Origin: Clostridia bacterium
GTDB taxonomy: Bacteria > Bacillota > Clostridia > Oscillospirales > CAG-272
Direction of reading: 5' to 3'
DNA length: 64,000 nucleotides
Assembly: GCA_017451045.1 (NCBI GenBank)
Contig: JAFSSK010000098.1
Location: forward strand, 14,561 to 78,560
The notes under the pieces were generated by a model that was given only the letters and a program-made list of their open reading frames with translations, did not search any database and had not been told where the DNA came from. Position 1 is the first letter of the stretch. Every line of letters begins with the position of its first letter. Position numbers and translations under genes: made by a program. Positions 2,556 to 48,303 of this stretch are shown here, one piece after another.

Positions 2556-3823
2556 CGATAGCGGAAACCATGTCATACATCCATTCGGTGGAATGGCGGG
2601 GCTCCAGGCCGGGCCTGGAGAGGATCGGTCATCTTCTGCACGCCATCGGCGATCCGCAGAAAGGCATGCGGTTCGTCCACGTCGCGGGAACGAACGGGAA
2701 AGGATCCGTCTGCGCCATGACCGAATCGATCCTGCGCAGCGCGCATTACCGCACCGGGCTTTTCACCTCCCCGTATATATACGCTTTCAACGAGCGCATG
2801 GCAGTAGACGGCAATCCCATTTCAGACGAGGAACTGTCTGAGATCACATCTTTCATCCGTCCGTACGCCGACAAAATGGAGGACAAGCCCACGGAGTTCG
2901 AACTGGTCACGGCCATCGGCTTTGAGTATTTCAGGCGCCATAAGTGCGACGTCGTCGTGCTGGAGGTCGGCATGGGCGGCCGCCTGGACTCCACGAATAT
3001 CATCGAGGATCCCGTCGCCTGCGTCATCACGGGCATTTCAAAAGACCACACAAAGTATCTGGGGAACACCATAGCCGAGATCGCGGCGGAAAAGGCAGGC
3101 ATCCTGAAGCCGGGCGCACCCGTCGTCTTCGGCGGAGAGGATCAGGACGCCGTCGACGTCATCAGAAAGAGAGAGGACGAGATGCGCGAGCAGTATGTGC
3201 AGTTCAACCCCGCACGTCTGGAGATCCGAAGGGCGGATCTGTCCGGATGCGTTTTCGATTACCGCAGAAGGAAGGAACTCAGCATCGGCCTGGCAGGCCT
3301 TTATCAGGCGAGGAACGCGTCCGTCGTTCTCGATCTGATCGACCTTCTCAACGTCCGCGGATTCAGCATTTCCGAGGAACAGATCCGTGAAGGTCTTAAG
3401 AATGCCGTCTGGCGCGGCAGGTTCGAGATTCTTTCCAAGGATCCTCCGCTGATCTATGACGGCTCGCACAACCCGGAAGGGATCGGCGCCGCCGTGGCCA
3501 GCATCGGGCACTATTTCCCCGGGCAGAAGATCCATCTGCTTACCGGCGTGATGGCGGACAAGGACTTTGAGCTGATGGCGAAAACACTGGCGCCCGTCGT
3601 CTGTGACGCCGTTACCGTCCGCCCGGACAACCCGCGGGCCCTCGACGCGAAGGACCTGGCTGACGTCTACCGCCGGGAAGGCGTTCCCGCCAGGCCGGCA
3701 GCGGACATAAAAAGCGCCGTTCGGGACATTCTCGCGGCTGCCGCCGAAGACGGGAATCCGGCCTTCGCACTCGGGTCTCTCTATATGTACGGAGCGATCA
3801 AGGACGCCGTTTTGGAAAAATAA
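2552..3823 (+). CDS. folC: Folylpolyglutamate synthase / dihydrofolate synthase (Mur ligase family)
   Basis: Begins MTIAETMSYIHS..RPGLERIGHLL and carries the P-loop 'HVAGTNGKGS'. RBS AAGGAGG at 2537-2543. The longer 2063 start in the ORF track runs in an alternative frame through folT and is rejected. Confidence 0.9.
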   Translation: MTIAETMSYIHSVEWRGSRPGLERIGHLLHAIGDPQKGMRFVHVAGTNGKGSVCAMTESILRSAHYRTGLFTSPYIYAFNERMAVDGNPISDEELSEITSFIRPYADKMEDKPTEFELVTAIGFEYFRRHKCDVVVLEVGMGGRLDSTNIIEDPVACVITGISKDHTKYLGNTIAEIAAEKAGILKPGAPVVFGGEDQDAVDVIRKREDEMREQYVQFNPARLEIRRADLSGCVFDYRRRKELSIGLAGLYQARNASVVLDLIDLLNVRGFSISEEQIREGLKNAVWRGRFEILSKDPPLIYDGSHNPEGIGAAVASIGHYFPGQKIHLLTGVMADKDFELMAKTLAPVVCDAVTVRPDNPRALDAKDLADVYRREGVPARPAADIKSAVRDILAAAAEDGNPAFALGSLYMYGAIKDAVLEK

Positions 3824-7961: not shown

Positions 7962-8519
7962 TCAGGCGCGGGACAGATACTCACCGGTTCTCGTATCGAT
8001 CTTAAGTTTGTCTCCGACATTGATGAAGAGCGGCACCTTGATCTCCGCGCCCGTCTCGAGCGTGGCGGACTTCAGTGCGTTCGTCGCGGTGTTTCCGGCA
8101 AAGCCCGGTTCCGTGTCCGTTACTTCCAGTTCAACAAATGTGGGAGGCTCGACGCCGAACACGTTGCCTTTGTAGGAAATGATCTTGCACATCATCTCTT
8201 CCTTCACGAATTTGAAGTTGTCGGGCATCTTGTCGGGAGCCAGAAGTGTCTCTTCCCAGGTTTCCGTATCCATGAAGTGGTACAGGTCGCCGTCAAAGTA
8301 GGAATACTGAAGATCTTTTCTTTCGATGTATGCGTTCTCGAACTTGTCTGTCGGCGAGAAAGTTCTCTCCACGACAGCCCCGGTGATCACGTTCTTCATC
8401 TTCGTACGGACGAACGCCGCACCTTTTCCGGGTTTGACATGCTGGAATTCGATAACCTGATAAACCTGTCCGTCGCATTCAAACGTAATGCCGTTCTTAA
8501 AATCGCCAGCTACTACCAT
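7962..8519 (-). CDS. efp: Elongation factor P
   Basis: [36 protein letters not shown].. is a full-length EF-P match. RBS GGAGGA before ATG 8519. The longer 8582 start is rejected. Confidence 0.95.
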
Positions 8520-29055: not shown

Positions 29056-31122
29056 ATGAAAAAAACATTTTGTGAGCGGACAGACGTTTTCTTAGGATCT
29101 TCGACCATAGATCTTCCGACAGCCGAGCGGCTGGCGGCGTCCTGGTTCTTTATCAAAGGGATCACCGGCAACACGCACCCCGGCGCGACACTGCCGTTCG
29201 GAAAATACTCCTGCTGCACCTATACGTCCGCCTACCCCACCGGTTACGGATGCAACTGGACGAACAGCTGCCCTTGGGACATGCGCCACTTCCCAGAAGG
29301 AGCGCGGTTCAAGGGCCTTTCCCATTTCCATCAGAGCGGAACGGGCGCGATCGGGCTATATTACAATTTTGCCCTGATCATTCCCTACACCGGAGACAGA
29401 CCGGAACAGAGCGGTGAGGACATACTCGAGGAAAAAGGATGTCCCGGCTACTATTCGGTCCGCAGCCGTGCCGGAAAAGATTCCATTCTTTCCGAAGCGA
29501 CCGTCAGCTCACGCTCAGTTTATCATCGCTTCACTTTCCCCCAAAAAGGCGGAAAGATCCGTCTGGACCTGACAAACGACGGGCTGAACCGCATCCTGAC
29601 GGGCGAAGTCGGCAAGAGTCTGGGCGGAAAGATCAAAATCCTTGGCGATTCTGACGTGTCAGCCGAGCTGAACCTCGACGAGCGGGTACACTATTTCCGC
29701 CTGCATTTCGATGGCGCATCCGTTAAATGCCTCCTCCACGGCGAAGACCGCCTTAGCGATAACGAAGTTTCCTTCGAAACTGTCGACCCCCATGACTTCT
29801 ACGGCGCCGAGCTGGAAGCGTCCGGCACGACGGTCCTGTCCCGCTTTTCCGACTCTCTCGTCAGCGCTGACAGAGCTGAAGAAGATATATCTGCAGACGA
29901 GGGCGGGTTCGACGCCGTCCGTAAGGCGGCAGACAGGATCTGGGAGGACATGCTCGGCAAAATCGAGATCGACTGCGACGATCCTTCAGAGCAGGAGAAA
30001 TTCTATTCGAACCTGTACCAGTCCCTGGTCAAGCCGTCGGACAGGCCGAAAGACAGCCCCATTTGGCCGGAAGACACCTATATGGTAGATTTCGCCACCA
30101 TGTGGGACATTTACAAAACGCAGCTTCCGCTGATCTTCACGCTTTACCCGGAGACCGGCGAGAAAATAATCGAATCCTTCCGCCTGTATGAAAAGCACAC
30201 GGGCGCCTTCCCTCACGCCGTGATGGTGGGCGGGAAAACGAACTGGCACTGGAGCCAGGCGTCCATGCTGGCGGAATACAGCATCTGCGACGCTTTCTGG
30301 CGTGGGATAAAAGCGGACTACAAGTCTTTGATGGAATCGATCAGGCGGGACATGCAAAGGCCCGAATATGCGGACATCATAGCGGGAAAACTGCCGATCA
30401 TGCTGACCCACTGGCTGGATATCACGGAGGCGTGCGGCGACGTCGCGGATATGGCGGACGCGCTGGGGCTGGGCGATGACGCGCAGAAACTGCGCAAGGT
30501 CTCCGAAAGATGGTCCGAGGCCTTCGATCCGGCGACGGGACTTCTTCGCAAGGACGATCACTGGTATTACGAGGGCAACCACTGGAACTATTCCTTCCGT
30601 CTTTTGCGTCATATGAAGAAGCGGATGGACATAGTCGGCCGCGACGCCTACATCGACCTTCTGGACCGATTCTTCGGCTTCAAGGACCCGATGGATATGA
30701 GCGGGAGATTCGAAGGCTTCAACAACGAATCCGACATGGAGGCGCCGTTCGCGTACCACGCGGCGGGCCGCATGGACAGGATCGCCGCCATCATGGACGC
30801 CATGCACGAATTCATCTTTACGACGGGCCGCGGCGGAATCCCCGGCAACAACGATTCCGGCGCGCTGTCCTCCCTTTACGTCTGGAACGTCCTGGGCATT
30901 TTCCCCGTGGCGGGCCAGAACAGGATGCTGATCGGTTCGCCCCGGTACAAAAAAGCCGTGCTTCACCTGCCGAAGGGAAAGGATTTCACGATCGTCAAGG
31001 AGGGCGAGGGCGGTTGCGTGATTGCGGCAGAGCTTGACGGTGAGCCGCTGGCGGACTTTTCCTTCACCGCTTCCCGCATGATGCAGGGCGGCACGCTCGT
31101 TCTGCGCACAGAGGCCCTTTGA
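29056..31122 (+). CDS. GH92 family alpha-mannosidase-like hydrolase, no signal peptide
   Basis: 'GNTHPGATLPFG' and 'GIPGNNDSGALSSLYVWNVLGIFPV' are GH92 hallmark motifs. Confidence 0.75.
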   Translation: MKKTFCERTDVFLGSSTIDLPTAERLAASWFFIKGITGNTHPGATLPFGKYSCCTYTSAYPTGYGCNWTNSCPWDMRHFPEGARFKGLSHFHQSGTGAIGLYYNFALIIPYTGDRPEQSGEDILEEKGCPGYYSVRSRAGKDSILSEATVSSRSVYHRFTFPQKGGKIRLDLTNDGLNRILTGEVGKSLGGKIKILGDSDVSAELNLDERVHYFRLHFDGASVKCLLHGEDRLSDNEVSFETVDPHDFYGAELEASGTTVLSRFSDSLVSADRAEEDISADEGGFDAVRKAADRIWEDMLGKIEIDCDDPSEQEKFYSNLYQSLVKPSDRPKDSPIWPEDTYMVDFATMWDIYKTQLPLIFTLYPETGEKIIESFRLYEKHTGAFPHAVMVGGKTNWHWSQASMLAEYSICDAFWRGIKADYKSLMESIRRDMQRPEYADIIAGKLPIMLTHWLDITEACGDVADMADALGLGDDAQKLRKVSERWSEAFDPATGLLRKDDHWYYEGNHWNYSFRLLRHMKKRMDIVGRDAYIDLLDRFFGFKDPMDMSGRFEGFNNESDMEAPFAYHAAGRMDRIAAIMDAMHEFIFTTGRGGIPGNNDSGALSSLYVWNVLGIFPVAGQNRMLIGSPRYKKAVLHLPKGKDFTIVKEGEGGCVIAAELDGEPLADFSFTASRMMQGGTLVLRTEAL

Positions 31123-31173
31123 GAAAAGGAACAGGCACAGAATTATTTGCAAAGATTATTTTTTGACAGACAA

Positions 31174-31203
31174 AACAGCCCGGCAGCTTCGTGCCGGGCT
31201 GTT
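31174..31203. other. Perfect 12-bp-stem hairpin of ambiguous orientation
   Basis: AACAGCCCGGCA-gcttcg-TGCCGGGCTGTT. The U-tract (UUUUGUCUGUC) follows it only on the minus strand, where no gene ends. On the plus strand it lies 52 nt after GH92 but has no U-tail. Confidence 0.4.
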
Positions 31204-31271
31204 CGCATGTAAATATTTGTTTACACCGCGATACAGACCTTTCTGCTTCCGGCGCAGCCCGCAACCAGAAC

Positions 31272-31299
31272 TTGACATTTTTGCGGTTATATGTATAAT
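31272..31299 (+). promoter_or_regulatory. Sigma-A promoter of the HTH-mutase operon
   Basis: TTGACA, 16 nt, TATAAT. It leaves an AT-rich leader of about 140 nt. Confidence 0.6.
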
Positions 31300-31333
31300 T
31301 TGAGGTGGACCGCGAGCTTTTATTAATCTATGT

Positions 31334-31348
31334 AAACTATTATAGTTT
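31334..31348. promoter_or_regulatory. Candidate operator: perfect 15-bp palindrome AAACTAT-T-ATAGTTT
   Basis: Located in the leader downstream of the promoter. Related cores are CTATAATAG at 31392-31400 and the half-site ATAGTT at 31423-31428. Confidence 0.4.
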
Positions 31349-31447
31349 CCCTGTTCCACGATTTCTTGCTTGTTTCCTGCTCATTTTACTTCTATAATAG
31401 TAATTGGTTATTTTTGTAAATAATAGTTCGCAGGAGGAAACTGATCC

Positions 31448-33118
31448 ATGACAATCGGTGAAAAGATCGCCAGACTGAGATCATATAATTGCGGCAAGCA
31501 GAGCATGTCGCAGGAAGAACTCGCGGATATTCTGAACGTTTCAAGACAGTCCGTCTCCAAGTGGGAAATGAACCAGGCGTCTCCGCGCATCGAGAATGTG
31601 CTGGAGATCTGCCGCCTTTTCAGCGTCAGCACGGATGATCTGCTTCGCGACGACCTGCCCCTTCCGGGCGGAAAAGAAGAGAAAAGCACTGCAGACGGTC
31701 GCGCGGGAAGATCCCTTCATTATTTCGGCACGGACGGCTTCCGCGGAGAGGCGGGCGCCGTGCTGACTTCCGAGCAGGCATTCAAAGTCGGCCGTTTTCT
31801 CGGCTGGTATTATACAAGCCCCCTGGCGAACAAGGCCACGGCAGGATCCGTCGTCGACAGGAACTACCGTCCCGGCATCGTGATCGGGAAGGATACCAGG
31901 CGCTCCAGCTATACGCTCGAGTACGCGATCGCGTCGGGCGTGACGGCTTCCGGCGCCGACGTGTACATGCTCCACGTCACGACGACGCCGAGCGTGTCCT
32001 ACGTCACCCGCCACGACAATTTCGACTGCGGCATCATGATCTCTGCATCCCACAACCCGTATTTCGACAACGGCATCAAACTCGTGAACCAGTACGGCGA
32101 GAAAATGGACGACGAGACGCTCCTTCTGATTGAGGCCTACCTCGACGGGAATCTTGACGAACTGGGCATCAGCGACCCGGATCTTCCCCTGGCGACACGG
32201 GAAAAGATCGGCGCCATCATCGACCACGTGGCGGGAAGAAACAGGTATATCGGCTACCTGATCTCCCTGGCGGCTCACTCCTACCGGGAACTCAAGATCG
32301 GTCTTGACTGCGCGAACGGCGCCTCGTGGATGATCGCGCCCTCCGTATTCGAAGCGCTCGGCGCGAAGACGTACGTCATCGGGGCCCAGCCGGACGGCCA
32401 GAACATCAACCGGGACATCGGCTCAACCCATATCGAAACGCTGAAGAAGTTCGTCCGGGACAACAACCTGGATCTCGGCTTTGCCTTCGACGGAGACGCG
32501 GACAGGTGCATCGCCGTCGATGAAAAAGGAAACGAGGTAAACGGCGACCACATCCTTTACATCCTGGGCAACAGGCTGAAAAGACTCAACAATCTGTCCG
32601 GGAACACGGTCGTCCCAACGTTCATGTCCAACGCGGGGCTTTTCAAGGCGCTGGACAAGGCAGGCATCAAATCGGTGCAGGCCAAGGTCGGCGACCGGTA
32701 TATCTGGGAAGTCATGCGCGAGAAGGGATACAGTCTCGGCGGCGAACAGTCCGGGCACATCATCATCCAGAAGTACGCGACAACGGGAGACGGGATCCTC
32801 ACGGCGATCATGCTCACAGAAGAGGTACTGGACCGCAAGATGCCGCTGAGCGCGCTGGCAGCGCCCGTCCAGATCTTCCCGCAGGTCCTGCGCAGCATCA
32901 AGGTGCGCAGCAAGCCCGAGGTGGCTGCCGATCCGGACATCAAGGCAAGCATCGCCTCCATTTCGGAAGAGCTCGGCGCAGACGGACGGATCCTGCTCCG
33001 CGAGAGCGGCACCGAACCTGTCGTTCGCGTCATGTGCGAAGGGACCGACGTCCAGAAATGCACCGAGTACGTCGATTCCGTCATCGATCTCATCATCAAA
33101 AAAGGATACAGCATATGA
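31448..33118 (+). CDS. Fusion protein: N-terminal XRE/Cro-type HTH domain plus a complete phosphoglucosamine mutase (alpha-D-phosphohexomutase)
   Basis: Residues 1-70 read 'MSQEELADILNVSRQSVSKWEMNQASPRIENVLEICRLF' (HTH_3). A linker of about 20 aa follows. The mutase part has 'YFGTDGFRGEAG', the catalytic 'SASHNPYFDNGIK', metal loop 'FDGDADR', sugar loop 'GGEQSGH' and phosphate loop 'RESGTEPVVRV'. It is a single uninterrupted ORF with no internal Met near the junction. RBS AGGAGGAA. Confidence 0.85.
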   Translation: MTIGEKIARLRSYNCGKQSMSQEELADILNVSRQSVSKWEMNQASPRIENVLEICRLFSVSTDDLLRDDLPLPGGKEEKSTADGRAGRSLHYFGTDGFRGEAGAVLTSEQAFKVGRFLGWYYTSPLANKATAGSVVDRNYRPGIVIGKDTRRSSYTLEYAIASGVTASGADVYMLHVTTTPSVSYVTRHDNFDCGIMISASHNPYFDNGIKLVNQYGEKMDDETLLLIEAYLDGNLDELGISDPDLPLATREKIGAIIDHVAGRNRYIGYLISLAAHSYRELKIGLDCANGASWMIAPSVFEALGAKTYVIGAQPDGQNINRDIGSTHIETLKKFVRDNNLDLGFAFDGDADRCIAVDEKGNEVNGDHILYILGNRLKRLNNLSGNTVVPTFMSNAGLFKALDKAGIKSVQAKVGDRYIWEVMREKGYSLGGEQSGHIIIQKYATTGDGILTAIMLTEEVLDRKMPLSALAAPVQIFPQVLRSIKVRSKPEVAADPDIKASIASISEELGADGRILLRESGTEPVVRVMCEGTDVQKCTEYVDSVIDLIIKKGYSI

Positions 33119-33795
33119 TTCCAGAAACAGTCAGGACCGAGAACCTGGTCAGTCCCGCCGGCACGCTGGCAGAAACGTACCTTCTGTCGTTCGCATACCC
33201 CTGGGAGGCGCTTGCCGGGATCAAAGACTATATCATCTCCCTCGGGGAATCGCTTCCCGCGACAGAATATGAAAAGGCCGGAGACGGCATCTGGGTGGCT
33301 AAGACCGCCGTCGTAGCGCCGTCCGCCTCCGTAGCGGGCCCCTGCATCATCGGGCCTTTTTCGGAAGTGAGGCACTGCGCCTATATCCGCGGCTCTGTGC
33401 TGATCTGCGCCCACGCCGTCGTAGGCAACTCCTGCGAATGCAAGAACAGCATCATCCTGGACAAATCTCAGGTCCCCCATTTCAACTATGTGGGCGACTC
33501 CATCCTCGGCATCGGCGCGCACATGGGCGCGGGAGCCGTCACGTCCAATTTCAGAAGCGACAAGAAGAACATATCGATCCATATCGGTCAGGAAACAGTC
33601 GTTCCCGGGCTGCGCAAAATGGGTGCCGTCATCGGCGACCACGCGGAAGTCGGGTGCGGCAGCGTCCTGAACCCCGGCACGATCCTTGGCAGAGACTGCC
33701 GCGTCTATCCGCTCTCTTCGGTGCGCGGATTCGTTCCGGCCGGTCACATCCATAAAACAGACGGCACGCTGACGCCGATCCTGCCGGACAGGTAA
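33115..33795 (+). CDS. Stand-alone left-handed beta-helix acyltransferase resembling the C-terminal (GlcN-1-P acetyltransferase) domain of GlmU
   Basis: Hexapeptide repeats run from about residue 75 to the end ('VGNSCECKNSIIL', 'NYVGDSILGIGAHMGAGAV', 'GAVIGDHAEVGCGSVLNPGTILG'). There is no N-terminal nucleotidyltransferase domain. ATGA overlap with the mutase gene. Confidence 0.65.
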   Translation: MIPETVRTENLVSPAGTLAETYLLSFAYPWEALAGIKDYIISLGESLPATEYEKAGDGIWVAKTAVVAPSASVAGPCIIGPFSEVRHCAYIRGSVLICAHAVVGNSCECKNSIILDKSQVPHFNYVGDSILGIGAHMGAGAVTSNFRSDKKNISIHIGQETVVPGLRKMGAVIGDHAEVGCGSVLNPGTILGRDCRVYPLSSVRGFVPAGHIHKTDGTLTPILPDR

Positions 33796-34766: not shown

Positions 34767-34783
34767 CCCCTGTCATACAGCAG

Positions 34784-34820
34784 GAGCGCAGCCCGAAGGG
34801 GCTGCGCTCCGCTTTTTTAT
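34784..34820 (+). terminator. Intrinsic terminator after the kinase-like gene
   Basis: GGAGCGCAGCCC-gaa-GGGCTGCGCTCC (perfect 12 bp) followed by GCTTTTTTATGTTTTTTT. Confidence 0.8.
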
Positions 34821-34841: not shown

Positions 34842-37358
34842 TTATGCCTCTTCCAGCCTGTAGGTGCGAATGGAGAACGGCGGGAAATCGGCTTCGACAA
34901 CCAGCCTGTCCTTGTCGCGGCGACACCGGACTTCCCCGCCCGTGGGTCTTCCGTCCGGCGCTGTCTCGACGATGCCCGAAAACAGGCGCGCGTCGACCGT
35001 GAACACGCCTTTCGTTTCGCCGCTTGCGTTGAACAGGCGCAGATAGGTCTGCCCGTCCTGCCTGTAAAGCGCCCCGACCTCGAGACCGGGCGTCAGGATC
35101 TGTACGACAGAGCCTGACTGCACGTCCGGTCCGGTGCTTCTCGCCACGTAGGGCTTGTGCAGGAACCGCTCACACGCATGCCACAGTCCTGCGCGCCGCC
35201 AGTCGCCCGCATGCGGCATGATCCTGTAGCGCAATTCGTGCGCGCCCCGCAGGGTGCACCGTCCCCACCAGAAACCTCCGTCGTATCCCCAGGCGAGAGC
35301 CAGGCCGAAGGGGTATTCCCCGCCGTGGACGTATGCCGTCGTGTGGTCGGCGAAGACGCAAAGGCCCTCTTCGTCGTCCGATACGTCCGTCCAGTGCACA
35401 AGGATGTTGTGCTTGATGTCGTTCCATGACTTGAAATGCGTGTCGCTAAGCTTGCTGCGGCACACGTCATAGGCGCAGTCCTTGTCGATGTGAGCCTGCC
35501 TGAAGGACGTGGGAAAACAGGCGTTCAGGCGGTAGCGTCCGTCGTGGTATGTGCGGTGCGGATCGTGCACCTGCGACTGCTCGTTTTCCTCCTTCATCTG
35601 ATACGGCTCGCCGATAAGACATCCTTCTCCGAAATCGAAGCGGACAAAGATATCAAGACTTGAGGACCCGGCCTGAAGCGTCAGCCGCTGCTCGTAACGG
35701 GCGCATCCCACACGTCCGCGCAGGGTCATGACCGCTTCCAGCGGCCCGTTCCATTTGATGTCCGCCTTTGCCGGATACTCGGTATTCGAGCAGAAGCGGT
35801 CCTCCCCGATAAAATATCCTCTGTATTCGTTGAAATCCTTGCCGGGTGCCACCGCCTCGGTCCCCCGGTCTTTGGAAAAGTACGACTTTATAACGCCGCC
35901 GCGCTTCAGGTCGAACACGACCCTGACGCGGTCGTTTTCAAGGACTGCGGTATCGTCCGTGATCTCTGCCCTGATCGGAGCCGCCTGCTCCTCCTCTGAA
36001 ACGGGAACGACGGCAACGGCCTTTACGCCCATTCCTGAGAACGGGACGCGGACAAGCAGTTCCCCCGCGTTCCATGATCCGTCCCGGTGCCTTCGATGGC
36101 AGACGGCCTGAGCCGTGAGTTTATTCGTTCCGTCATAGACTTCGAACCCGCGCGTCCCGATCGGGGCGGTCATGGGGATCCGCACGATCCGTTCCTCTTT
36201 GTACGCCAGCGGGTTGAACAGAAGCATCGTTTCCCTGCCGGCGTCCGCAGCGGACGGGGCGGGCGTCAGCGCGTCAAACGCGTCCCGGCGCGCCTTGTCC
36301 ATGAGGAATTCGGCGGCATATACCTGTGCGGACGTTTTCCAGGCCCAGTTGTCCTCTCCAGACCCTGCCCTGGCGCAGATCCATCCGTCGTGGTGCTGTG
36401 TCATCAAAAGATGCCCCCAGATTTCTTCCATCCGGTCCGGAACGTCCTTTTTGCCGAGCACTGCGGATACTGCGCACAGCCGTTCGGTATCCAGCGTTTC
36501 GGCTTCGCACCGCCGCACCTGCCGCGCCATGCGCACAAGGGTCTGGTCTCCCCAGGGCAGCGCGCCCCGAAAGATCTCCTGACCGGGCTGCCAGACAGGA
36601 CGGGGACTCGTGGCGATCCGATCAAAGTATTCCCGCCAGATCGAATAAGCAATGCGGGGCGGCGTGACGCCGTCTTTTCCGCTCCTGCCGGGTCTTGCTC
36701 CCCAGCCGAGATCCTGGTAGTACATCCCCGTCGGATGCGGGATGCCCTCGCGCGCGCATTTATCGGCATACTCCTCACCGGCTTCGCACGCTTCCGTTTC
36801 GTAAACCTTCACCAGTTCCTCGCAGGCGTACCGCGGCGCGGTGGGGATCGATGTGCCGTCCGGTCCCGTCCAGTCGACGGTCTCGGCGTTGATGCCTTCA
36901 GTATATCCTCCCCAGGCCGTCGATGCGTTTTTCAAAGACGCCCGCTGAAAACCCAGCTGACAAAGGATCTGCGGAAGGGCGCTCGTCCAGCACGGTTCCT
37001 GTACGGCGTAGGTGTCCACCATTACCCACGGGAAGTGACGTTTGATAACGGCAAGTCCCATCGTCAGATGCCGGATGTTGCTCTCGCCGTCCGTGATCCA
37101 GCCGTAGGGTTGCGCGTAACTGCCCGAGACGATCTCCACCCTCGCGTCATCAGACCCGTCTTTTGTCATCTCGGCAAATTCTGCATACGCCCGGGGATCG
37201 CGGGATCTCAGATAGTCCCACGACACCGGCTCCACGTCGATGCTGAGACGCCACTCCGGATGCAATTTCATCTGATCGAGTATGTCCCGCCAGCTTCCGA
37301 GAGGCATGTGCCCCCGGATCCCGCCGTGATAGCCGTCCATATAGTATACTTGCGTCAT
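34842..37358 (-). CDS. GH38-like alpha-mannosidase family protein (divergent), no signal peptide
   Basis: 'EIVSGSYAQPYGWITDGESNIRHLTMG' and 'LLMTQHHDGW' parallel the GH38 'GGW..DEA..ES.IRQL' and 'QHHDAITG' blocks. The canonical N-terminal HxDxxW is replaced by 'YYMDGYHGG'. RBS GGAGGA before ATG 37358. Confidence 0.55.
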   Translation of the reverse strand: MTQVYYMDGYHGGIRGHMPLGSWRDILDQMKLHPEWRLSIDVEPVSWDYLRSRDPRAYAEFAEMTKDGSDDARVEIVSGSYAQPYGWITDGESNIRHLTMGLAVIKRHFPWVMVDTYAVQEPCWTSALPQILCQLGFQRASLKNASTAWGGYTEGINAETVDWTGPDGTSIPTAPRYACEELVKVYETEACEAGEEYADKCAREGIPHPTGMYYQDLGWGARPGRSGKDGVTPPRIAYSIWREYFDRIATSPRPVWQPGQEIFRGALPWGDQTLVRMARQVRRCEAETLDTERLCAVSAVLGKKDVPDRMEEIWGHLLMTQHHDGWICARAGSGEDNWAWKTSAQVYAAEFLMDKARRDAFDALTPAPSAADAGRETMLLFNPLAYKEERIVRIPMTAPIGTRGFEVYDGTNKLTAQAVCHRRHRDGSWNAGELLVRVPFSGMGVKAVAVVPVSEEEQAAPIRAEITDDTAVLENDRVRVVFDLKRGGVIKSYFSKDRGTEAVAPGKDFNEYRGYFIGEDRFCSNTEYPAKADIKWNGPLEAVMTLRGRVGCARYEQRLTLQAGSSSLDIFVRFDFGEGCLIGEPYQMKEENEQSQVHDPHRTYHDGRYRLNACFPTSFRQAHIDKDCAYDVCRSKLSDTHFKSWNDIKHNILVHWTDVSDDEEGLCVFADHTTAYVHGGEYPFGLALAWGYDGGFWWGRCTLRGAHELRYRIMPHAGDWRRAGLWHACERFLHKPYVARSTGPDVQSGSVVQILTPGLEVGALYRQDGQTYLRLFNASGETKGVFTVDARLFSGIVETAPDGRPTGGEVRCRRDKDRLVVEADFPPFSIRTYRLEEA

Positions 37359-37395
37359 GTTATGTCCTCCGTAAAGAGCTTGCCCGAGGAAAGGT

Positions 37396-40300
37396 TTACT
37401 CGTGCTTTCCCGCGTAACCGGCAAGACTTTTCACTTCCAGCGTCAGCGTGCGTTCGTTGGCGATCCGCATCTCTCCGCGCTGTCCCTCCTGCTCGGAATA
37501 AACCGTTTCTTTCAGAAGGCGGAACCCTTCCGTGTCCCTGGTCGCTTTCTTGTAGTCTGCGACCGTGAACACCTTTGCGTCCTTGTATTCCTTTCCGAAC
37601 ACGGGATCGAACCGAAAGATCGGCGTGTCGTCCGACGCCTGTGCCAGTTCCTTTTCGGGTATGCGCAGTTTGATGCAAAGCGTCATATATCCCGCCTGGA
37701 AGGGGACTCTGTTCCCGTACAAGTCGTGCGACCTCCCGCCGCCGGCAGCCGCCAGGACGACGCATCCGTCTTCCTTCCTGACGGGATTCGGATGCCTTGT
37801 CCCTACATACTGATCGGCCTGATAGCTGAACAGCGTTTTCACCGCCATGCTGTTGCCCGTTACAATCAGCTCCGAAGGCTCTTTCCCTTTGAACGCGATC
37901 TCCCCGGCAATGGCGGAAAACTCTGGGATGACCCTGTCGACCATGCCGCGGCCCAGAACGTCCCGACCTGCGTCCTTAAACGTCCGTCCGCCGCTGTCCT
38001 TGAGCGTTAGCGCGGCTTCGTCTGCCCCCTGAAGAGACCAGTGCCGGACGATGACGGGCGACGCGAAGCTGAACTTTTCTCCCGGACTCACCTTTTGCTG
38101 GAACAGGATGTCCTCTCCCGAACAGGTATCCGTGATGTCGTACGCGGATACGGGCTCGTCCGGCTCCCCGCAATCCTCTGCCCTGTCCGAATAAACGTCG
38201 ACCGCGACGATCATCGCCACGCTGTCGCTGCTGCTTCCGGTCGGGACGTCGATGAGGATCCTTAAAAACCTGGCCAGCTGCTCGGCAAAGGTGTCTGTCG
38301 TGACGGGCAGCTTGTTGTTCCTCCGTCCTGCTATATCCGCCCACTGCCCGTTCTGCAGGCACTGGATGCGGTACGTGTCCGTATTCCTGATGCTGTCGCG
38401 GCACAGACATTCCGCGTGGCGGATCACCACGTGGCTGAACCTGAGCCGTCTGCCCAGATCCAGAATCAGGTAGCCGCTGCCGCCGGCAGAGGCTTTCCAG
38501 CAGGTATCATTTCTTCCGTCCGTGACACGCTGCGCTTCGAATCCCTCCTGGCTGTTCTTCGCCATGACAGCGCAGCCGCGCGAAAGATTTCTGGCATAGG
38601 GCGTGTTCTTCACGCTGAATGATATATCGAAGGCAGGCATCAGGAACATGATTGAGGCGCCTTCGTACCGGCTTCCGTCCGCCCCGGTCCAGACCGTCCG
38701 GCCGTCCGCCTCGCCGTCATACGCAAGACATACGGGCCCGCCCTCGTGGTATGTGCCTGTCCCCCGCGCGCCGTCCGCGCGGACGGTATATTCCGCATAC
38801 TTTTTCTTGTGCAGCGCGATATCGGTCGCAAGTCTTGCGTACCCTTGCTGCTTTGTGCTACTGATCGCGGCGATCATCAGGTGCTCGTCTTCGGGCAGGA
38901 CAATCTTCCCGGCGCCAGCCGGCACGACGACCTCATACTGGTAGAAGGCGAACCGTCCGTATACGCGGTCGCCGGTCTTGTCGTGCGTGTGGGAGAAGGA
39001 CATAGCGACCCTGTCTTCCCTGATCCAGCCGAGGTGGCCGGATCCGTACTGGTCCCAGCCTCCGATATCGTCGTCATACGCCTGCACCCCGAACGTCACA
39101 GTGCCTGTCCCGGGAAGGAATCCGAGGCTGCAGGTGCCGTCTTCGTCGTCTCTGGCCGCCAGGAGGAACACCTTTTTAGCGCCTTCCGGAAGCTTGAGTT
39201 CCTGGCCGGCTGCCCGCAAAAACGTCAGCTCCCCGTCCTTTTCCGTGATCCCGAACGGGATCCCGGCGCAGACCCGGTGCGCGCAGATGAGATTTCTCGG
39301 CACCGTCGTGTTCTCCGGACCCAGTCCGTACTGTCCCGCCTCTTCGCGGCAGGACGTGAATTTTTCGCCCGCAGGCAGCGGGAGCTGTTCATAAACTTTG
39401 CGGGAAGCTTTTTGCGCAGGTTTTTTCAGCGTTAGCGCGAAGGTCTTCGGCGCAAACTTTTTGATGGAGAAATGAAGTTCACCGTTCCGCAGTTCCGCCG
39501 GGCCGATCTTTCTTTCGTACCCGTCCGTCTCTTTGGCGCACAGGATTCCCTGCGCCGCCGTGATGACAACATCTTCATGATCGCGTCCGAAGGATTCGCA
39601 CACCCGGACGATAACTTCGTTTGTATCTTCCGCTTTTTTAATCGCCTTCACGGCAATGCCCGGATCGTTCACCCGCAGAAGCGAGAAGCTGGCCGGCAGC
39701 ACGCCGGGATGAGCGTTTGTTTCTACGGCCATCAGCGGCTGGTTGAACCGCACGCCCGCCTGGTCGGCAAGGCTTTCGTTATAGTCTCCCGCGGCGCCGC
39801 GGACGGCGACGGAGAACACGTTTTCGCCCTGGTCCTGCAGATCCTGTCTTGTCTGCGGCAGGAACTGGTTGGCCGGCGTATGGATGCAGGTCAGGCGCAA
39901 AGTGCTTCCGCACTTGTCCATCCCGTATTTACAGTCGTTGAGGATCTGCACGTTGTATTTTTTGTCCCTGTCGAACATGGAAGCCCATTTGTGAACGGGG
40001 ACCTCGTATTTTTCAGGCGCCCTGTCCTCGCGCTCCACGTATCCGAGTCCCGCGTCGTAAACGGCCGTTTCGGACGAAAGAGAAAGCGGGAAGGCCATTT
40101 TCAACAGCGAACTCTTCTCGTTCCAGAACACCCTGCACCCGATCCTAACATAATCGTCTCCCGCGTCCAGCGACACGGTCATAAAGTATTTGCTGGTGCC
40201 GCAGCACCTCGTCACGCGAACGGCGATCCGGCAGGGACCTTGCTGAAGGACTTCGAATTCGGCGGGACCTGATACGACCGCTTTGGGCTCCGCGCAGATA

Positions 40301-41889
40301 TCGTCATATCCGATCTCCCATGCGCCGTACCCGCGGAAGCCGTTCTTCAGGATCTGAAAGCGCATCGGCTCCTTCAGAAGTTCAATCCCGTTTTTCTTGT
40401 CAAAGATCGAGGCGACGTCTCCGTTTTCGTCCAGGCTGACGCGCAGGATCCCGTTGTCAAGGACACGTTCCGAAACTGTCATGCCGGCGGCGTCTGCCGT
40501 CCCCGCTCTGAATGTATATACCGCATATCCGTTCCCCGGCACTGCCGCCCGGAAGAGGATATCGGCATAAAGCTTTCCGTCCCTTCTGTCCGTCGAGAGC
40601 ACCTGCACGGGCTGCTCGTCACCGTCTGCCCCGCAGGCCGTGATCCGTTCGGGGATCTTCCCTTCCGGCCAGCATATCCTTGCGCTGACCGTGTCCGTGC
40701 GGTCGAATCCGGCGGGATTGAAAACGACGGCGCAGCCGCCGCCTGCCCCGGCGGTATCCACCTGCTCCGCCACGGCGGTGAGCGCGTTCGAGATCATCCC
40801 GTCCAGGCGGTTGTTCACGACGATGTCGTCGTGGAAGGTCTCCCTGTACGCGCGCTGGCAGCTGGTGCCGGTCAGGTCGTCATGGAACTCGTGCCTGATA
40901 AAGTCGACCCAGGCCCGGCGGATGTCTTCGGCGGGATAATCGATCACGCCGATCCAGGATCCTAAAACGCTGAACCGCTCCGCGGCGTCTGCTTTCAGCT
41001 CGTTGGACCGGTGGAAGCGTTTGGTAGGCCCAACGGATGTGTAGCTGCCGACGCCGTGAACCACCATCAGCAGCTCCTCGTTGACGGAAGGAAGTTTTGC
41101 CGCCTCATCGGGCGTCAGTTCGTCCGCCAGCTGACCGGCGTAGGCGGAAACGACTTCGTTCATTCCGTCTTCCGTCAGGACCCCCTCGTTGACGAACCTG
41201 GCGGACGCGTCTGTCGGCGCGCCGCCTATGTCGCCCGTCCCGTAATACCGCATGTCACGCTCGAGCGGGAGGGCCTCCACCATATCGTGAAGGTCTTTGT
41301 TTTCTGCCGGGTTCTCTTTGAGGCTGTCCCCGTACGGACCCGGGTCGATCGAGGCGATGACCTCGCTCCCGTCTATCCCTTCCCAGCGTCCCACATGGAA
41401 CGGGGGCGGATATCCGTTGTTCCAGGTCAGTTTCTGAGAGGAGAAGGCCACAAGGCCCATATGCTTCATCAGGGTCGGAAGCGTCCACGGGAATCCGAAG
41501 CAGTCCGGCAGAAAGATGTCGTTGCTGATCCTGCCGAACTCCTGATCGAAGAACCTGTTCCCGTAAAGGATGTTGCGCATCAGTGTCTCCGGTTCCGGCG
41601 TCACGACGTCCCCGTTCTCCCAGGAAGATCCTGTCACGTGCCATCTCCCGGCCGCAACGTATTCCTTGAGCTTGCTGAAATACTCGGGGTAATACTCCTT
41701 GATCAGCGCGTACCTGTAGGCGCCCTCGAAATTGAACGCGTAATGCGGATAGTTCTCAAACAGCCTGAAGTTTTCAAGACACGTCGAAGGCAGATACTCC
41801 TTGATCGTCTGCTCCAGGGTCCAGTTCCAGACCGTATCGAGGTGAGCGGTCGCGACCTGGTATACTTTCGGTTTCTTTCTGTTAGCCAT
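37396..41889 (-). CDS. GH38 alpha-mannosidase (1497 aa) with a C-terminal F5/8 type C (discoidin/CBM32-like) domain and further extension, no signal peptide
   Basis: 'ATAHLDTVWNWT', 'WENGDVVTPEPETLMRNILYG' and 'IRHEFHDDLTGTS' are GH38 motifs. 'RVTDGRNDTCWKAS..GYLILDLGRRLRFSHVVI' is discoidin-like. Confidence 0.8.
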   Translation of the reverse strand: MANRKKPKVYQVATAHLDTVWNWTLEQTIKEYLPSTCLENFRLFENYPHYAFNFEGAYRYALIKEYYPEYFSKLKEYVAAGRWHVTGSSWENGDVVTPEPETLMRNILYGNRFFDQEFGRISNDIFLPDCFGFPWTLPTLMKHMGLVAFSSQKLTWNNGYPPPFHVGRWEGIDGSEVIASIDPGPYGDSLKENPAENKDLHDMVEALPLERDMRYYGTGDIGGAPTDASARFVNEGVLTEDGMNEVVSAYAGQLADELTPDEAAKLPSVNEELLMVVHGVGSYTSVGPTKRFHRSNELKADAAERFSVLGSWIGVIDYPAEDIRRAWVDFIRHEFHDDLTGTSCQRAYRETFHDDIVVNNRLDGMISNALTAVAEQVDTAGAGGGCAVVFNPAGFDRTDTVSARICWPEGKIPERITACGADGDEQPVQVLSTDRRDGKLYADILFRAAVPGNGYAVYTFRAGTADAAGMTVSERVLDNGILRVSLDENGDVASIFDKKNGIELLKEPMRFQILKNGFRGYGAWEIGYDDICAEPKAVVSGPAEFEVLQQGPCRIAVRVTRCCGTSKYFMTVSLDAGDDYVRIGCRVFWNEKSSLLKMAFPLSLSSETAVYDAGLGYVEREDRAPEKYEVPVHKWASMFDRDKKYNVQILNDCKYGMDKCGSTLRLTCIHTPANQFLPQTRQDLQDQGENVFSVAVRGAAGDYNESLADQAGVRFNQPLMAVETNAHPGVLPASFSLLRVNDPGIAVKAIKKAEDTNEVIVRVCESFGRDHEDVVITAAQGILCAKETDGYERKIGPAELRNGELHFSIKKFAPKTFALTLKKPAQKASRKVYEQLPLPAGEKFTSCREEAGQYGLGPENTTVPRNLICAHRVCAGIPFGITEKDGELTFLRAAGQELKLPEGAKKVFLLAARDDEDGTCSLGFLPGTGTVTFGVQAYDDDIGGWDQYGSGHLGWIREDRVAMSFSHTHDKTGDRVYGRFAFYQYEVVVPAGAGKIVLPEDEHLMIAAISSTKQQGYARLATDIALHKKKYAEYTVRADGARGTGTYHEGGPVCLAYDGEADGRTVWTGADGSRYEGASIMFLMPAFDISFSVKNTPYARNLSRGCAVMAKNSQEGFEAQRVTDGRNDTCWKASAGGSGYLILDLGRRLRFSHVVIRHAECLCRDSIRNTDTYRIQCLQNGQWADIAGRRNNKLPVTTDTFAEQLARFLRILIDVPTGSSSDSVAMIVAVDVYSDRAEDCGEPDEPVSAYDITDTCSGEDILFQQKVSPGEKFSFASPVIVRHWSLQGADEAALTLKDSGGRTFKDAGRDVLGRGMVDRVIPEFSAIAGEIAFKGKEPSELIVTGNSMAVKTLFSYQADQYVGTRHPNPVRKEDGCVVLAAAGGGRSHDLYGNRVPFQAGYMTLCIKLRIPEKELAQASDDTPIFRFDPVFGKEYKDAKVFTVADYKKATRDTEGFRLLKETVYSEQEGQRGEMRIANERTLTLEVKSLAGYAGKHE

Positions 41890-45468: not shown

Positions 45469-45548
45469 GTCTTCTCCCTTCAGCCCGTTTTCCGCCCGCT
45501 TAAGGGCCCTGCAACGGGCATATAGAGTTAAATGTATTATACACTTAC

Positions 45549-45577
45549 AATATATCACAAACATACATTTTTGTCAC
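45549..45577 (-). promoter_or_regulatory. Candidate promoter of rhaBAD-GH38-GH38
   Basis: Minus strand: GTGACA, 17 nt, TATATT with a TGa extended -10. Confidence 0.45.
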
Positions 45578-45598
45578 TACTTTTTTGCCGAGGTCCGC

Positions 45599-45627
45599 TT
45601 GCCATCCCATCCAAAACATGCTACAAT
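45599..45627 (+). promoter_or_regulatory. Candidate promoter of the GH95 gene
   Basis: TTGCCA, 17 nt, TACAAT with a TGc extended -10. It is back-to-back with the rha promoter, with 21 bp between the -35 boxes. Confidence 0.5.
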
Positions 45628-45696
45628 TTTCATGTCAGCCAGACATTTTTCTGCCGGCCATGCGGCCCGGCAGATACAGAAAGAAGGAGAACAGCC

Positions 45697-48303
45697 ATGG
45701 AATTGATGCTTCGCTATGACAGCCCCGCGCCGGACAGTGACGAAGGCTGGGAAAAATATTCCACACCCATCGGATGCGGATGGTACGGCGCCAACCTTTT
45801 CGGCGGTGTCGAACGCGACCGGATCCAGATCACTGAAAACGCAGCTGTCAATCCCTCTCACCTCGGCGGTCTGAACAGCTTCGCGGACCTGTACCTGAAT
45901 TTCCCCGGCGGAAACGTTACGGGATACAGAAGGACGCTGGACCTTTCCCGTTCGCTCGCTACCGTCCGGTATGAGAACGACGGCGTCTGGCTGGAGAAGC
46001 AGTATTTCGCTTCCTATCCCGACAGGGCGCTCGTGATCCGCGTGCGTTCCGCGGAGCCGGTCTCGTTCTCCGTGGAACTCAAGATCGCACATCTTACTGA
46101 AGAACCGGAGCGGAAAAAGGACGGCGTCGTCACAGTCGACGCGCCGAGGATCTTCATGAGCGGCAAGATGCATGCGATCGGATACCGCTTCGCGGCGGTC
46201 GCCACGGTCCGCTCAGACGGAACGGTCAGCAACGGGGATAATGTTCTCTGCGTCAACGGCGCGACAGACACGGACATCATCTTCTGCGGGGCGACGAACT
46301 ATGAACTGCGCCCGGAAGTCTTCCTGGAAGACGATCCGCAAAAGAAACTGCGCGACTTCGATCCGATGCCGCAGGCTCTGCAGCTCGCAGAGGCCACGAC
46401 CGCATATACGGCGGACGAGCTGCTGCAGCGCCATGTGGAAGATTATCAGACGATATTCGGCCGCGTGAGCCTGTCGCTGGGAGACGAAGAGATCCCGGGC
46501 GTCCCCACGGACAAGCTGCTCGAAGCCTACTCGAAAGGCAGCCGCAGCAAGTACCTCGAGGTCCTGTATTTCCAGTTCGGCAGATACCTTCTGATCTCCT
46601 CGTCAAGACCCGGAACGCTTCCTGCAAATCTGCAGGGCGTGTGGAACTGCCATGACCGGTCCCCCTGGGGCTCCGGGTACTGGCACAACATCAATGTCCA
46701 GATGAACTACTGGCCCGCGTTCGTAACGTCCATTCCGGAAACGTTCGAGGCCTATCAGGCCTTCTATGAGGCGTTTTTGCCGAAAACATGCCAGTTTGCC
46801 TCGGCTTTCGTCCGCGCGACCGTACCGGAAAACGCGACAGACGAACCCGGCGCGTGCGGCTGGGTCATCGGAACGGCGAACTACCCATATTCCGTATCAG
46901 GTCCGGGCGAGCATTCAGGGCCCGGGACAGGGGGTCTTACGAGCCAGCTGTTCTACGACCGTTTCGCGTTTTCCGCGAAGGACGACGATCTGCGTAAAAT
47001 AGCCCTTCCCGCCCTTTTGTCCATGGCAAAATTCTTTTTGCGCGTGGTACGCGATTACGACGGTCTCTACCTGTCCGTCTTTTCCGCTTCTCCGGAACAG
47101 ATCTTAACCTCCAACGGCTCCTGGCCGCCCGCCTACCACCATACCGTCGGCTGCGCCTTCGACCAGCAGATGATCTATGAAAACGCCAAGAACCTTCTGG
47201 ACTGCGTCAGCCGCGTAGGCGAAGAAACGCTTTCGGAGGAAGACCGCGCGATCGTTCAGGCGGTCCGCAAGCAGTTCGACCGTTACGACCCCGTCATCGT
47301 GGGCTGGAGCGGCCAGGTCAAGGAATTCCGGGAAGAAAAATATTACGGGGAGTACTGCGAGTACCGCCACAGACACATTTCCCAGCTGGTCGGCCTGTAT
47401 CCCGGGACGTCCATCTCAAGAGAAACGCCGGCCTGGCTGGATGCCGCGAAGGTCACTTTGAATCTGCGGTCTGACTTCTCGACCGGATGGGCGCTTGCGC
47501 ACCGGCTCAACGCCTGGGCGCGGACCGGCGACGGCAACCGGGCTTACCGGCTGTTCTCCAATCTGCTCGGCACCCGCACGCTGCCGAATCTCTGGGACTT
47601 CCATCCGCCTTTCCAGATCGACGGGAACCTGGGCGGCGTTTCCGGCGTAGCGGAGATGCTGGTCCAGAGCCACGAAGGCGTCATTCTTCCCCTTCCCGCC
47701 ATTCCTGATGAATGGGGCAGCGGTGAATTCAAGGGACTCTGCGCAAGAGGCGGATTCTCTCTGGACGTCCGCTGGGAAAACGGATGTGCGAAAGCCGTCA
47801 CGGTACACTCGCACGCCGGAAAACCCTGCCGGATCCGCTATCCGAGCCTTTCCAACGCAAAATTCGATTTCGGGCACCGGGTGGAGGACGCAGACACCGT
47901 CTGCTTCGATACGGAAGCGGGGCGTTCATACGAGATCCGCTCGATCCCGCCGTTCGTCAAAAAGCCGCACCCCGTTTCGCTCAAGGCGACAAGGCAGGGT
48001 GAGCTGTCCTGGGACTTCAAAGGGCCCGTGGACATCTGGCGCGCGGCAGACAGTTCCCCCGTATACGAAAAACTCGCAGGATACGTTTCCGGCGGAACGT
48101 GGCGCGTCCGGGACGATCTGTACAGCCGTTCGGAGACCGTCACGTACAAGATCACCCGAGCCGGCGAAGGGCCTTTGGCTGAAGGCGCCCGCGTCACGCT
48201 GAACCACTCGACGAAGCTGCAGCGCGAGCAGTACCGTTACCTGATCCGTCAGCTGAACCTTATCTGCGGCACTGCGGAAGCGACGGAATACCTGGGGGAG
48301 TAA
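45697..48303 (+). CDS. GH95 alpha-L-fucosidase family hydrolase, no signal peptide
   Basis: N-terminal 'W..YSTPIGCGWYGANLFGGVERDRIQITE' and 'LQGVWN..WGSGYWHNINVQMNYWPA' are GH95 signatures. RBS GAAGGAGA before ATG 45697. Confidence 0.8.
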   Translation: MELMLRYDSPAPDSDEGWEKYSTPIGCGWYGANLFGGVERDRIQITENAAVNPSHLGGLNSFADLYLNFPGGNVTGYRRTLDLSRSLATVRYENDGVWLEKQYFASYPDRALVIRVRSAEPVSFSVELKIAHLTEEPERKKDGVVTVDAPRIFMSGKMHAIGYRFAAVATVRSDGTVSNGDNVLCVNGATDTDIIFCGATNYELRPEVFLEDDPQKKLRDFDPMPQALQLAEATTAYTADELLQRHVEDYQTIFGRVSLSLGDEEIPGVPTDKLLEAYSKGSRSKYLEVLYFQFGRYLLISSSRPGTLPANLQGVWNCHDRSPWGSGYWHNINVQMNYWPAFVTSIPETFEAYQAFYEAFLPKTCQFASAFVRATVPENATDEPGACGWVIGTANYPYSVSGPGEHSGPGTGGLTSQLFYDRFAFSAKDDDLRKIALPALLSMAKFFLRVVRDYDGLYLSVFSASPEQILTSNGSWPPAYHHTVGCAFDQQMIYENAKNLLDCVSRVGEETLSEEDRAIVQAVRKQFDRYDPVIVGWSGQVKEFREEKYYGEYCEYRHRHISQLVGLYPGTSISRETPAWLDAAKVTLNLRSDFSTGWALAHRLNAWARTGDGNRAYRLFSNLLGTRTLPNLWDFHPPFQIDGNLGGVSGVAEMLVQSHEGVILPLPAIPDEWGSGEFKGLCARGGFSLDVRWENGCAKAVTVHSHAGKPCRIRYPSLSNAKFDFGHRVEDADTVCFDTEAGRSYEIRSIPPFVKKPHPVSLKATRQGELSWDFKGPVDIWRAADSSPVYEKLAGYVSGGTWRVRDDLYSRSETVTYKITRAGEGPLAEGARVTLNHSTKLQREQYRYLIRQLNLICGTAEATEYLGE

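Follow-up and report, generated by a model that had tools for sequence, protein, structure and literature searches.

The fusion gene and its family

The stretch of DNA analysed here (the window; 64,000 nucleotides of contig JAFSSK010000098.1 from the Clostridia bacterium assembly GCA_017451045.1) carries a gene in which a helix-turn-helix (HTH) domain of the XRE/Cro-C1 type is joined to phosphoglucosamine mutase (GlmM), an enzyme of the UDP-N-acetylglucosamine (UDP-GlcNAc) pathway. The elements of this gene, which ends with a stop codon at 33116-33118, are as follows.

31448..33118, plus strand: fusion gene, an uninterrupted open reading frame (ORF) of 556 aa with an ATG start
31448..31651, plus strand: XRE/Cro-C1 HTH domain, residues 1-68, five helices
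31652..31717, plus strand: linker, residues 69-90, about 22 aa, predicted to be disordered
31718..33118, plus strand: GlmM part, residues 91-556, four phosphohexomutase domains with all catalytic loops
31432-31439, plus strand: ribosome-binding site (RBS) AGGAGGAA, 8 nt 5' of the ATG

Residues 17-65 matched the Pfam model HTH_3 (PF01381) with 49.9 bits and an E value of 3.4e-13 (gathering score 23), and a search with residues 1-90 alone gave 52.0 bits against the same cutoff of 23. The solved HTH domains nearest to the first 80 residues are those of P22 C2, ICEBs1 ImmR and CylR2 (E 4e-5 to 3e-4), and a PbsX-family regulator is also among the nearest structures. By its sequence, the N-terminal part is a bona fide Cro/C1-type HTH and a member of HTH_3. 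Similarly, PGM_PMM_I, II, III and IV follow in order over residues 92-547, each above its Pfam gathering score, and the glmM equivalog model TIGR01455 (NCBIfam) scored 488.9 bits over residues 93-549 against a cutoff of 447.55; with the archaeal GlmM, PMM/PGM and PGM models of NCBIfam, the window protein stayed far below the cutoffs. The translation contains YFGTDGFRG, ISASHNP (phosphoserine loop), FDGDADR (metal loop), GGEQSGH (sugar loop) and RESGTEP (phosphate loop). The nearest solved enzyme structures are bacterial GlmM, that of B. subtilis (7ojr) aligning from chain residue 4 with an E value of 1.7e-119. The enzyme half is GlmM by every sequence criterion applied and looks complete; it is predicted to catalyse the interconversion of glucosamine-6-phosphate (GlcN-6-P) and glucosamine-1-phosphate (GlcN-1-P).

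An AlphaFold2 model, built from a 32-sequence family alignment, shows a five-helix bundle, the HTH proper being made by helices 2 and 3, and places the helices at residues 3-12, 22-29, 33-40, 48-58 and 62-66, where the predicted local distance difference test score (pLDDT) of the blocks is mostly 84-88, with a dip to 65 over residues 11-20. Residues 75-86 of the linker are disordered (pLDDT below 50), and the C-terminal body is a four-domain mutase. A four-residue insertion between HTH helices 1 and 2 (the SYNCGKQS region, residues 12-20; window 31448-31520) coincides with the dip. Among the family members aligned, it was present in the window protein only, and the lineage that carries it is also the lineage with a degenerate operator, described below.

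These results agree with a preliminary description of this DNA, which had read the gene as a single 556-aa ORF of HTH, linker and phosphohexomutase (as the ORF, Pfam and TIGR01455 now confirm) and had judged the enzyme part intact from the same five motifs, catalysis itself being predicted. Its expectation of an HTH_3 score for the N-terminal residues was borne out by the search with residues 1-90, and the RBS that it had placed at the HTH start is the one listed above. It had also argued that the fusion is no gene-calling artefact: no in-frame ATG, GTG or TTG is present at the junction (residues 69-92), and the fusion was found in 120 of 120 clusters, as detailed next. Its start coordinate needs correction, because 31272 is the promoter -35 and the gene starts at 31448.

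The family proved to be widespread. Two independent metagenome contigs carried an identical protein together with identical neighbouring genes. When a collection of 5.8 billion proteins was searched as clusters of 90% identity, all of the best 120 clusters carried HTH_3 together with PGM_PMM_I-IV in proteins of 536-586 aa, the 119 next-best clusters being 61-68% identical to the window protein at 97-100% coverage. Where the sources named these proteins, the name was only "phosphoglucosamine mutase". A scan of one genome per GTDB species, with the N-terminal 168 residues as the query, returned at least 55 fusion loci (L006-L060), each from a different assembly, in at least 54 species-representative genomes, a count that is a lower bound. 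The query was fully covered in 52 of the 55 loci; L053 and L055 cover residues 1-159, and L059, at a contig end, covers 18-168. All 55 loci are from metagenome-assembled genomes (MAGs) of animal gut, rumen or digesters. One group of MAGs is labelled Clostridia, Eubacteriales, Acutalibacteraceae, Ruminococcus sp., Oscillospiraceae, Christensenellaceae or Lachnospiraceae, and a second group Bacilli, Bacillales or Erysipelotrichaceae.

The next 25 loci of the scan matched residues 85-168 only and encode unfused GlmM of the same subfamily, with the N-terminus MGKYFGTDGFRG; they include those of the cultured Faecalimonas umbilicata, Dorea sp. 5-2 and Lachnobacterium bovis. These relatives begin MGKYFGTDG, two to four residues ahead of the motif, which is the usual GlmM start given in the preliminary description.

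Both parts of the fusion are conserved. Mean pairwise identity within the family was 61% for the HTH (74% for the recognition-helix region, in which VSRQSVSKWE is near-invariant), 47-78% for the four enzyme domains and 13% for the linker, which varies in length as well. The serine loop, [ST]ASHN, was kept in all 120 clusters, as was the metal loop, and the sugar and phosphate loops were kept in 119 and 116. The conservation of the HTH and of the enzyme region therefore indicates that both halves are under purifying selection.

When the enzyme parts were compared by neighbour joining, one clade of the tree took in 57 of the 58 fused proteins; four unfused genes (L061, L062, L063 and L067) were nested within it, and the similarities of fused and unfused proteins were about equal (55-64% and 54-65%). 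The fused outlier, L060 (1074-2699), has an HTH that shares only about 40% identity with the others and an enzyme part that is sister to an unfused gene. Another locus, L066 (5983-7530), encodes about 65 extra N-terminal residues with a weak match to HTH_17 (E 0.0023, below the cutoff). From their sequences, L060 and L066 may represent independent fusions of DNA-binding domains to GlmM. A search of residues 1-125 against 1.84 billion representative proteins was uninformative, its top matches being fragments of the family at contig ends and proteins with multiple HTH repeats; the full-length fusions seem to have been absorbed into clusters represented by other sequences.

The preliminary description knew of no HTH-GlmM fusion in print, and we found none described in the searchable literature, whose coverage leaves out some subscription journals. 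It had also considered that the architecture might be common and already characterised. The first part stands, with at least 54 species and at least 120 clusters, and the second does not. HTH-GlmM is a widespread, uncharacterised family, which by its architecture would belong with the trigger enzymes and calls for no new category.

A palindrome upstream of the fusion genes

The main new result of this analysis is a palindrome that tracks the fused HTH across loci, which is comparative evidence and not proof. The 15-bp palindrome GCAAC-N5-GTTGC was evident in the 200 nt upstream of fusion genes, and we counted it up to 300 nt upstream in 55 loci (L003, L006-L058 and L060). A perfect copy was found in 38 of these loci, and a copy with at most one mismatch in 49. 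The 38 perfect copies lie in 16.5 kb of upstream sequence, where about 0.016 would be expected by chance; outside it, these loci span a further 555 kb, which contained no perfect copy and seven with one mismatch. Similarly, the two closest homologues of the window protein (L086 and L087) have one perfect site each, at -95 and -117, and no further site with up to one mismatch in about 11 kb.

The palindrome was absent near the gene in all 25 unfused loci, which also had no related HTH gene within about 6 kb on either side. The four unfused genes nested in the fused clade lack both the HTH and the palindrome, which were therefore lost jointly. L060, with its divergent HTH, has no palindrome either. 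The centres of the two half-sites are 10 bp apart, or one helical turn, as expected for an HTH dimer, and the half-sites are invariant rather than covarying, which fits a protein site and not an RNA stem. Together, these comparisons are evidence, short of proof, that the fused HTH binds the palindrome at its own promoter.

The position of the site differs between two types of locus. In the 44 Clostridia-type loci, the perfect site (O1) in most cases starts 94-131 nt before the ATG and is centred near -65, upstream of the promoter. In 24 of the 44 loci, a weaker second site, TCAAt-N5-GTTGg (at least 7 of 10 matches), has its start 22-23 nt downstream of that of O1 and reaches up to the first position of the -35, without covering it. 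In the seven Bacilli-type loci, a perfect or near-perfect site is found 28-33 nt ahead of the ATG, with a -10-like hexamer on its upstream side and the RBS on its downstream side, which is the classical position of a repressor site. Many loci (L008, L010, L017, L026, L029, L033, L041, L042 and others) also have a weak, degenerate palindrome, TGYAAA-N5/6-TTTRCA, on the upstream side of O1, at distances of about 62, 73, 83 or 94 nt. Such distances are close to multiples of the helical turn and give a hint, but only a hint, of DNA looping; the best site within a range was picked, so that the statistic is biased.

In the window, one candidate operator and one distal palindrome were found upstream of the fusion gene.

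31261..31275, no strand assigned: operator-like site GCAACcagaaCTTGA, matching GCAAC-N5-GTTGC at 8 of 10 positions, its right half overlapping the -35 TTGACA
31208..31225, no strand assigned: distal palindrome TGTAAAtatttgTTTACA, resembling the weak distal TGYAAA-N5/6-TTTRCA sites, putative function

The preliminary description had proposed the leader, at 31300-31447, as the target for footprinting; the conserved family site lies instead at or upstream of the promoter.

A regulon beyond the operon could not be inferred. In a metagenome scan with TTGCAAC-N5-GTTGCAA, the matches listed were mostly chance ones from soil and water, and one of the 80 loci listed (L121) has a related HTH gene near the site. 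At this locus the palindrome (203-221) stands about 80 nt before an ORF (260-1204) that encodes a multi-pass membrane domain joined to an XRE HTH, whose recognition helix, VSRQAVSKWE, is a near match to that of the GlmM-fused HTH. It is a single case.

The transcription unit and its surroundings

The fusion gene is the first of three genes on the same strand, and the unit contains the following further features.

31272..31299, plus strand: promoter TTGACA-16-TATAAT, sigma-70-type consensus, 12 of 12 matches
31306..31447, plus strand: 5' leader of about 140 nt, predicted from the promoter, AT-rich
31334-31348: leader palindrome AAACTATTATAGTTT, perfect 7-1-7
31392-31401: leader palindrome CTATAATAGT, related to AAACTATTATAGTTT, 46 nt downstream of it
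33115..33795, plus strand: acetyltransferase-like gene, 226 aa, stand-alone left-handed beta-helix
33837..34766, plus strand: uridine-kinase-like (PRK family) gene, 309 aa, third gene of the unit
34783..34820, plus strand: intrinsic terminator, 12-bp GC-rich stem and T run

No internal promoter was predicted among the three genes; with the consensus promoter and the terminator, they therefore form one unit. The fusion gene and the acetyltransferase-like gene overlap in the sequence ATGA (33115-33118), which holds the stop codon of the former and the ATG of the latter. The acetyltransferase-like product matches only the C-terminal half of archaeal-type GlmU (TIGR03992 positions 214-392); its nearest structure is Sulfolobus tokodaii ST0452 (2ggo/5z09), matched in the acetyltransferase domain with an E value of 3e-25. 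The gene follows glmM in 49 of the 55 fusion loci of the genome scan and in 13 of the 25 unfused loci. Throughout the subfamily the partner protein is about 220 aa long, and no uridylyltransferase gene was seen nearby. As judged from sequence, the arrangement implies a split GlmU function in these Firmicutes.

The third gene varies. The uridine-kinase-like gene stands next to the fusion in this lineage only and was not found in the fusion loci of other lineages. In the species of L003-L005, L006, L022, L036 and L050, the third gene is glmS, with gaps of 19-105 nt. By family homology, the conserved unit would encode successive steps towards UDP-GlcNAc: GlmS from fructose-6-phosphate to GlcN-6-P, GlmM to GlcN-1-P, and the acetyltransferase to N-acetylglucosamine-1-phosphate. 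No second phosphohexomutase gene, glmS or glmU was found in the 64-kb window.

The leader of the window gene is unusually long; those of its relatives are much shorter, and the leader is not conserved. Besides the two palindromes, it contains a 10-nt stretch (31372-31381) complementary to the RBS region (31432-31441). None of the three features is conserved in any other fusion locus. The palindromes AAACTATTATAGTTT and CTATAATAGT were rejected as operators, CTATNATAG being found upstream of 0 of the 55 other fusion loci. A riboswitch or attenuator in 31306-31447 was likewise rejected, as shuffling the sequence leaves the fold energy the same (z -0.17). A permissive Rfam scan of 31150-31470 returned noise only, and at gathering score Rfam gave one match in the whole window, a tetrahydrofolate (THF) riboswitch elsewhere. 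This riboswitch (RF01831, 85.8 bits; window 1759-1861, plus strand) lies upstream of ORFs 1953-2555 and 2063-3823, the latter with Mur-ligase/FolC-type domains.

The window is chromosomal, as shown by its PriA, AsnA and PFL genes. The operon sits among glycosidase genes at 29056-31122, 34842-37424 (minus strand), 37396-41889 (minus strand) and 45532-48303, which comprise GH92, two GH38 alpha-mannosidase-like genes (one encoding 1497 aa with F5/8 type C domains) and GH95. This set is typical of host N-glycan breakdown, and its placement beside the operon is not kept in other fusion loci.

Proposed role, alternatives and known systems

We consider it probable that HTH-GlmM is bifunctional, a GlmM that is at the same time an autoregulator, acting on the promoter region of its operon by binding GCAAC-N5-GTTGC. 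An active mutase converting GlcN-6-P to GlcN-1-P would bind the 15-bp palindrome through its N-terminal HTH. Since it takes a pair of XRE HTHs to read a palindrome, we propose, as the simplest model, that the GlmM dimer serves as the dimerisation module for the single HTHs, which, on flexible linkers of about 20-30 residues, would reach the two half-sites. GlmM is dimeric both in crystals and in solution (PMC8573169, PMC6368335). The output would most likely be negative autoregulation, dependent on concentration and exerted by the operon's own product, and the levels of the early UDP-GlcNAc enzymes would thereby be held steady.

Several observations weigh against this proposal. Six of the 55 fusion loci have no site with up to one mismatch. 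DNA binding is deduced from co-occurrence, which is partly confounded by the shared ancestry of the carriers. The geometry of the Clostridia-type loci, with O1 near -65 and a weaker site abutting the -35, would also fit activation. In the window itself, the site matches at 8 of 10 positions, a level reached by chance at 24 places in the 64 kb, and no site with up to one mismatch exists anywhere in the window; with a degenerate operator, the case for regulation in this organism draws on the evidence from the family.

A more elaborate form, which extends the trigger-enzyme idea of the preliminary description and which is possible but held by us tentatively, is that the protein is a ligand-coupled sensor, in which occupancy by GlcN-6-P and GlcN-1-P, or the state of the mutase phosphoserine, tunes binding of the HTH pair to the palindrome. 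With similar reserve, we suggest that such protein feedback on glmS-glmM has taken the place of the glmS ribozyme in many uncultured Clostridia and Bacilli of the gut. The fused operons that include glmS (L003, L006, L022, L036 and L050; gaps as above) leave too little space for a glmS ribozyme, and Rfam gave no match to one, whereas an unfused locus with the same gene order, L074, has one at 8145-8308 (75.6 bits), after the acetyltransferase gene and before glmS. Thus, RNA-based control may have been replaced by protein-based control in the fusion operons with glmS. There is also a precedent in RbkR, an archaeal riboflavin kinase joined to an HTH, where a co-substrate of the kinase improves DNA binding (PMC5397151). 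However, the linker is unconserved (13% identity) and predicted to be disordered, and a docking surface is not indicated either, since no residues set the fused enzyme bodies apart; two alignment columns that differed were rejected as fusion-specific docking residues, both being common to the nested unfused proteins. Moreover, the ribozyme contrast comes from a single unfused locus; L071, which is likewise unfused and has glmS, is without the ribozyme too, and the operon in the window does not include glmS.

The sign of the regulation bears on a second alternative, in which HTH-GlmM activates its own operon by binding near -65 and -43 and contacting RNA polymerase as lambda cI does at OR2. This would suit the 44 Clostridia-type loci, where the site is upstream of the promoter and the weaker site 22 or 23 nt further on meets the -35 (24 of 44). 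However, the -35 and -10 hexamers are good, which is unusual for activator-dependent promoters; with 12 of 12 consensus matches, the window promoter should need no activator. In addition, the Bacilli-type site is downstream of the -10 and beside the RBS, and the window site overlaps the -35. Most XRE-family autoregulators are repressors. We regard activation as unlikely, and repression is favoured over it on three grounds: the promoters are near-consensus, the sites of the Bacilli-type loci and of the window overlap either core elements or sequence that is transcribed, and an XRE autoregulator usually represses.

Could the mutase body be a mere dimerisation or sensor scaffold, with catalysis left to a separate, unfused GlmM? 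Bacterial regulators commonly contain sensor domains that derive from enzymes and are catalytically silent, as in the ROK, SorC and RpiR families. Nevertheless, the catalytic loops are conserved in 116-120 of the 120 clusters, and the window protein passes the GlmM equivalog cutoff. The acetyltransferase gene accompanies fused and unfused forms alike, the two resemble one another to about the same degree, and the nesting of unfused genes in the fused clade points to one orthologous housekeeping gene that gains and loses a domain. Among the best 80 genome loci listed, no assembly gives both forms, which is a weak argument. A silent scaffold is quite improbable.

Still harder to sustain is the idea that the palindrome belongs to some other lineage-specific regulator, the fused HTH being vestigial or serving in protein contact. 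The co-occurrence is correlative, and most carriers belong to one clade. Against this, site and HTH occur together in Clostridia-type and Bacilli-type loci despite the differing position of the site, they are jointly absent from the four nested unfused lineages, and the divergent fusion L060 (HTH about 40% identical) lacks the site. Purifying selection on the HTH is as strong as on the enzyme, and no other regulator gene is conserved beside the locus. We consider this explanation very unlikely. Finally, the joining of a small XRE gene to glmM by an assembly or gene-calling error can be dismissed for practical purposes, as the same continuous ORF, with no stop or alternative start at the junction, recurs across independent samples, contigs and assemblers, in at least 120 clusters and at least 54 species genomes.

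For HTH-GlmM as a proposed autoregulatory enzyme, several known systems offer comparison. Canonical GlmM (7ojr; S. aureus 6gyz; B. anthracis 3pdk) has the same four-domain body and the same four loops, to which the fusion adds about 90 N-terminal residues of HTH and linker. The fusion gene stands beside a stand-alone acetyltransferase-like gene, in contrast to the cdaA-cdaR-glmM arrangement of Bacillus and Staphylococcus (PMC8573169, together with general knowledge). The HTH shares its five-helix fold with P22 C2, ImmR and CylR2, which bind palindromic operators as dimers; phage-type XRE repressors dimerise through their own C-terminal domain or the HTH, whereas the other part of the fusion is a 466-residue enzyme.

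BirA, NadR and PutA are listed as trigger enzymes in a passage of PMC5397151 that cites Commichau and Stulke 2008. Like them, HTH-GlmM combines an enzyme and a DNA-binding domain in one polypeptide, and its predicted operator precedes genes of the same pathway. The HTH is of the XRE/Cro-C1 class in the fusion, in contrast to the winged HTH of BirA and the ribbon-helix-helix of PutA. The catalytic state is known to control DNA binding in BirA, NadR and PutA; in the fusion protein, such a link is hypothetical. By analogy, the closest published parallel is RbkR (PMC5397151). Both have an N-terminal HTH on an essential pathway enzyme and palindromic sites upstream of their own operon, and both alternate between fused and unfused forms across lineages, with apparent secondary loss of the domain. 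RbkR is found in lineages without the FMN riboswitch (PMC5397151), which resembles the fusion loci without a pathway riboswitch. It differs in its winged HTH, its archaeal origin and its proposed role as an activator, and its DNA binding, effector response and structure have been shown experimentally (PMC5397151).

Synthesis of UDP-GlcNAc is essential for the cell wall, and its early steps are adjusted by the glmS ribozyme (RF00234), by GlmY/GlmZ/RapZ and by the GlmM-CdaA interaction, as they would be by HTH-GlmM. To our knowledge, the controls known for this pathway are RNA-based (glmS ribozyme, GlmY/GlmZ) or act between proteins (GlmM-CdaA, GlmR), and none of those acting on glmS or glmM uses a DNA-binding domain on a pathway enzyme. 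In the unfused relative L074, the glmS ribozyme takes the same position in the operon.

If the proposal is correct, a pathway enzyme that reads DNA would be a third kind of UDP-GlcNAc control, and the short list of trigger enzymes (BirA, NadR, PutA and RbkR) would be extended to the metabolism of the cell envelope. The animal-gut Firmicutes in which this family abounds are known mostly as MAGs, and the database entries inspected call the protein just "phosphoglucosamine mutase"; current annotation thus misses the presumed regulatory half. With the predicted 15-bp operator, the hypothesis can be tested directly in vitro on synthetic genes, with no need to culture the carriers. Because orthologues of one group have gained and lost the HTH in nature, the family would also provide a clean system for studying how enzymes acquire a regulatory role.

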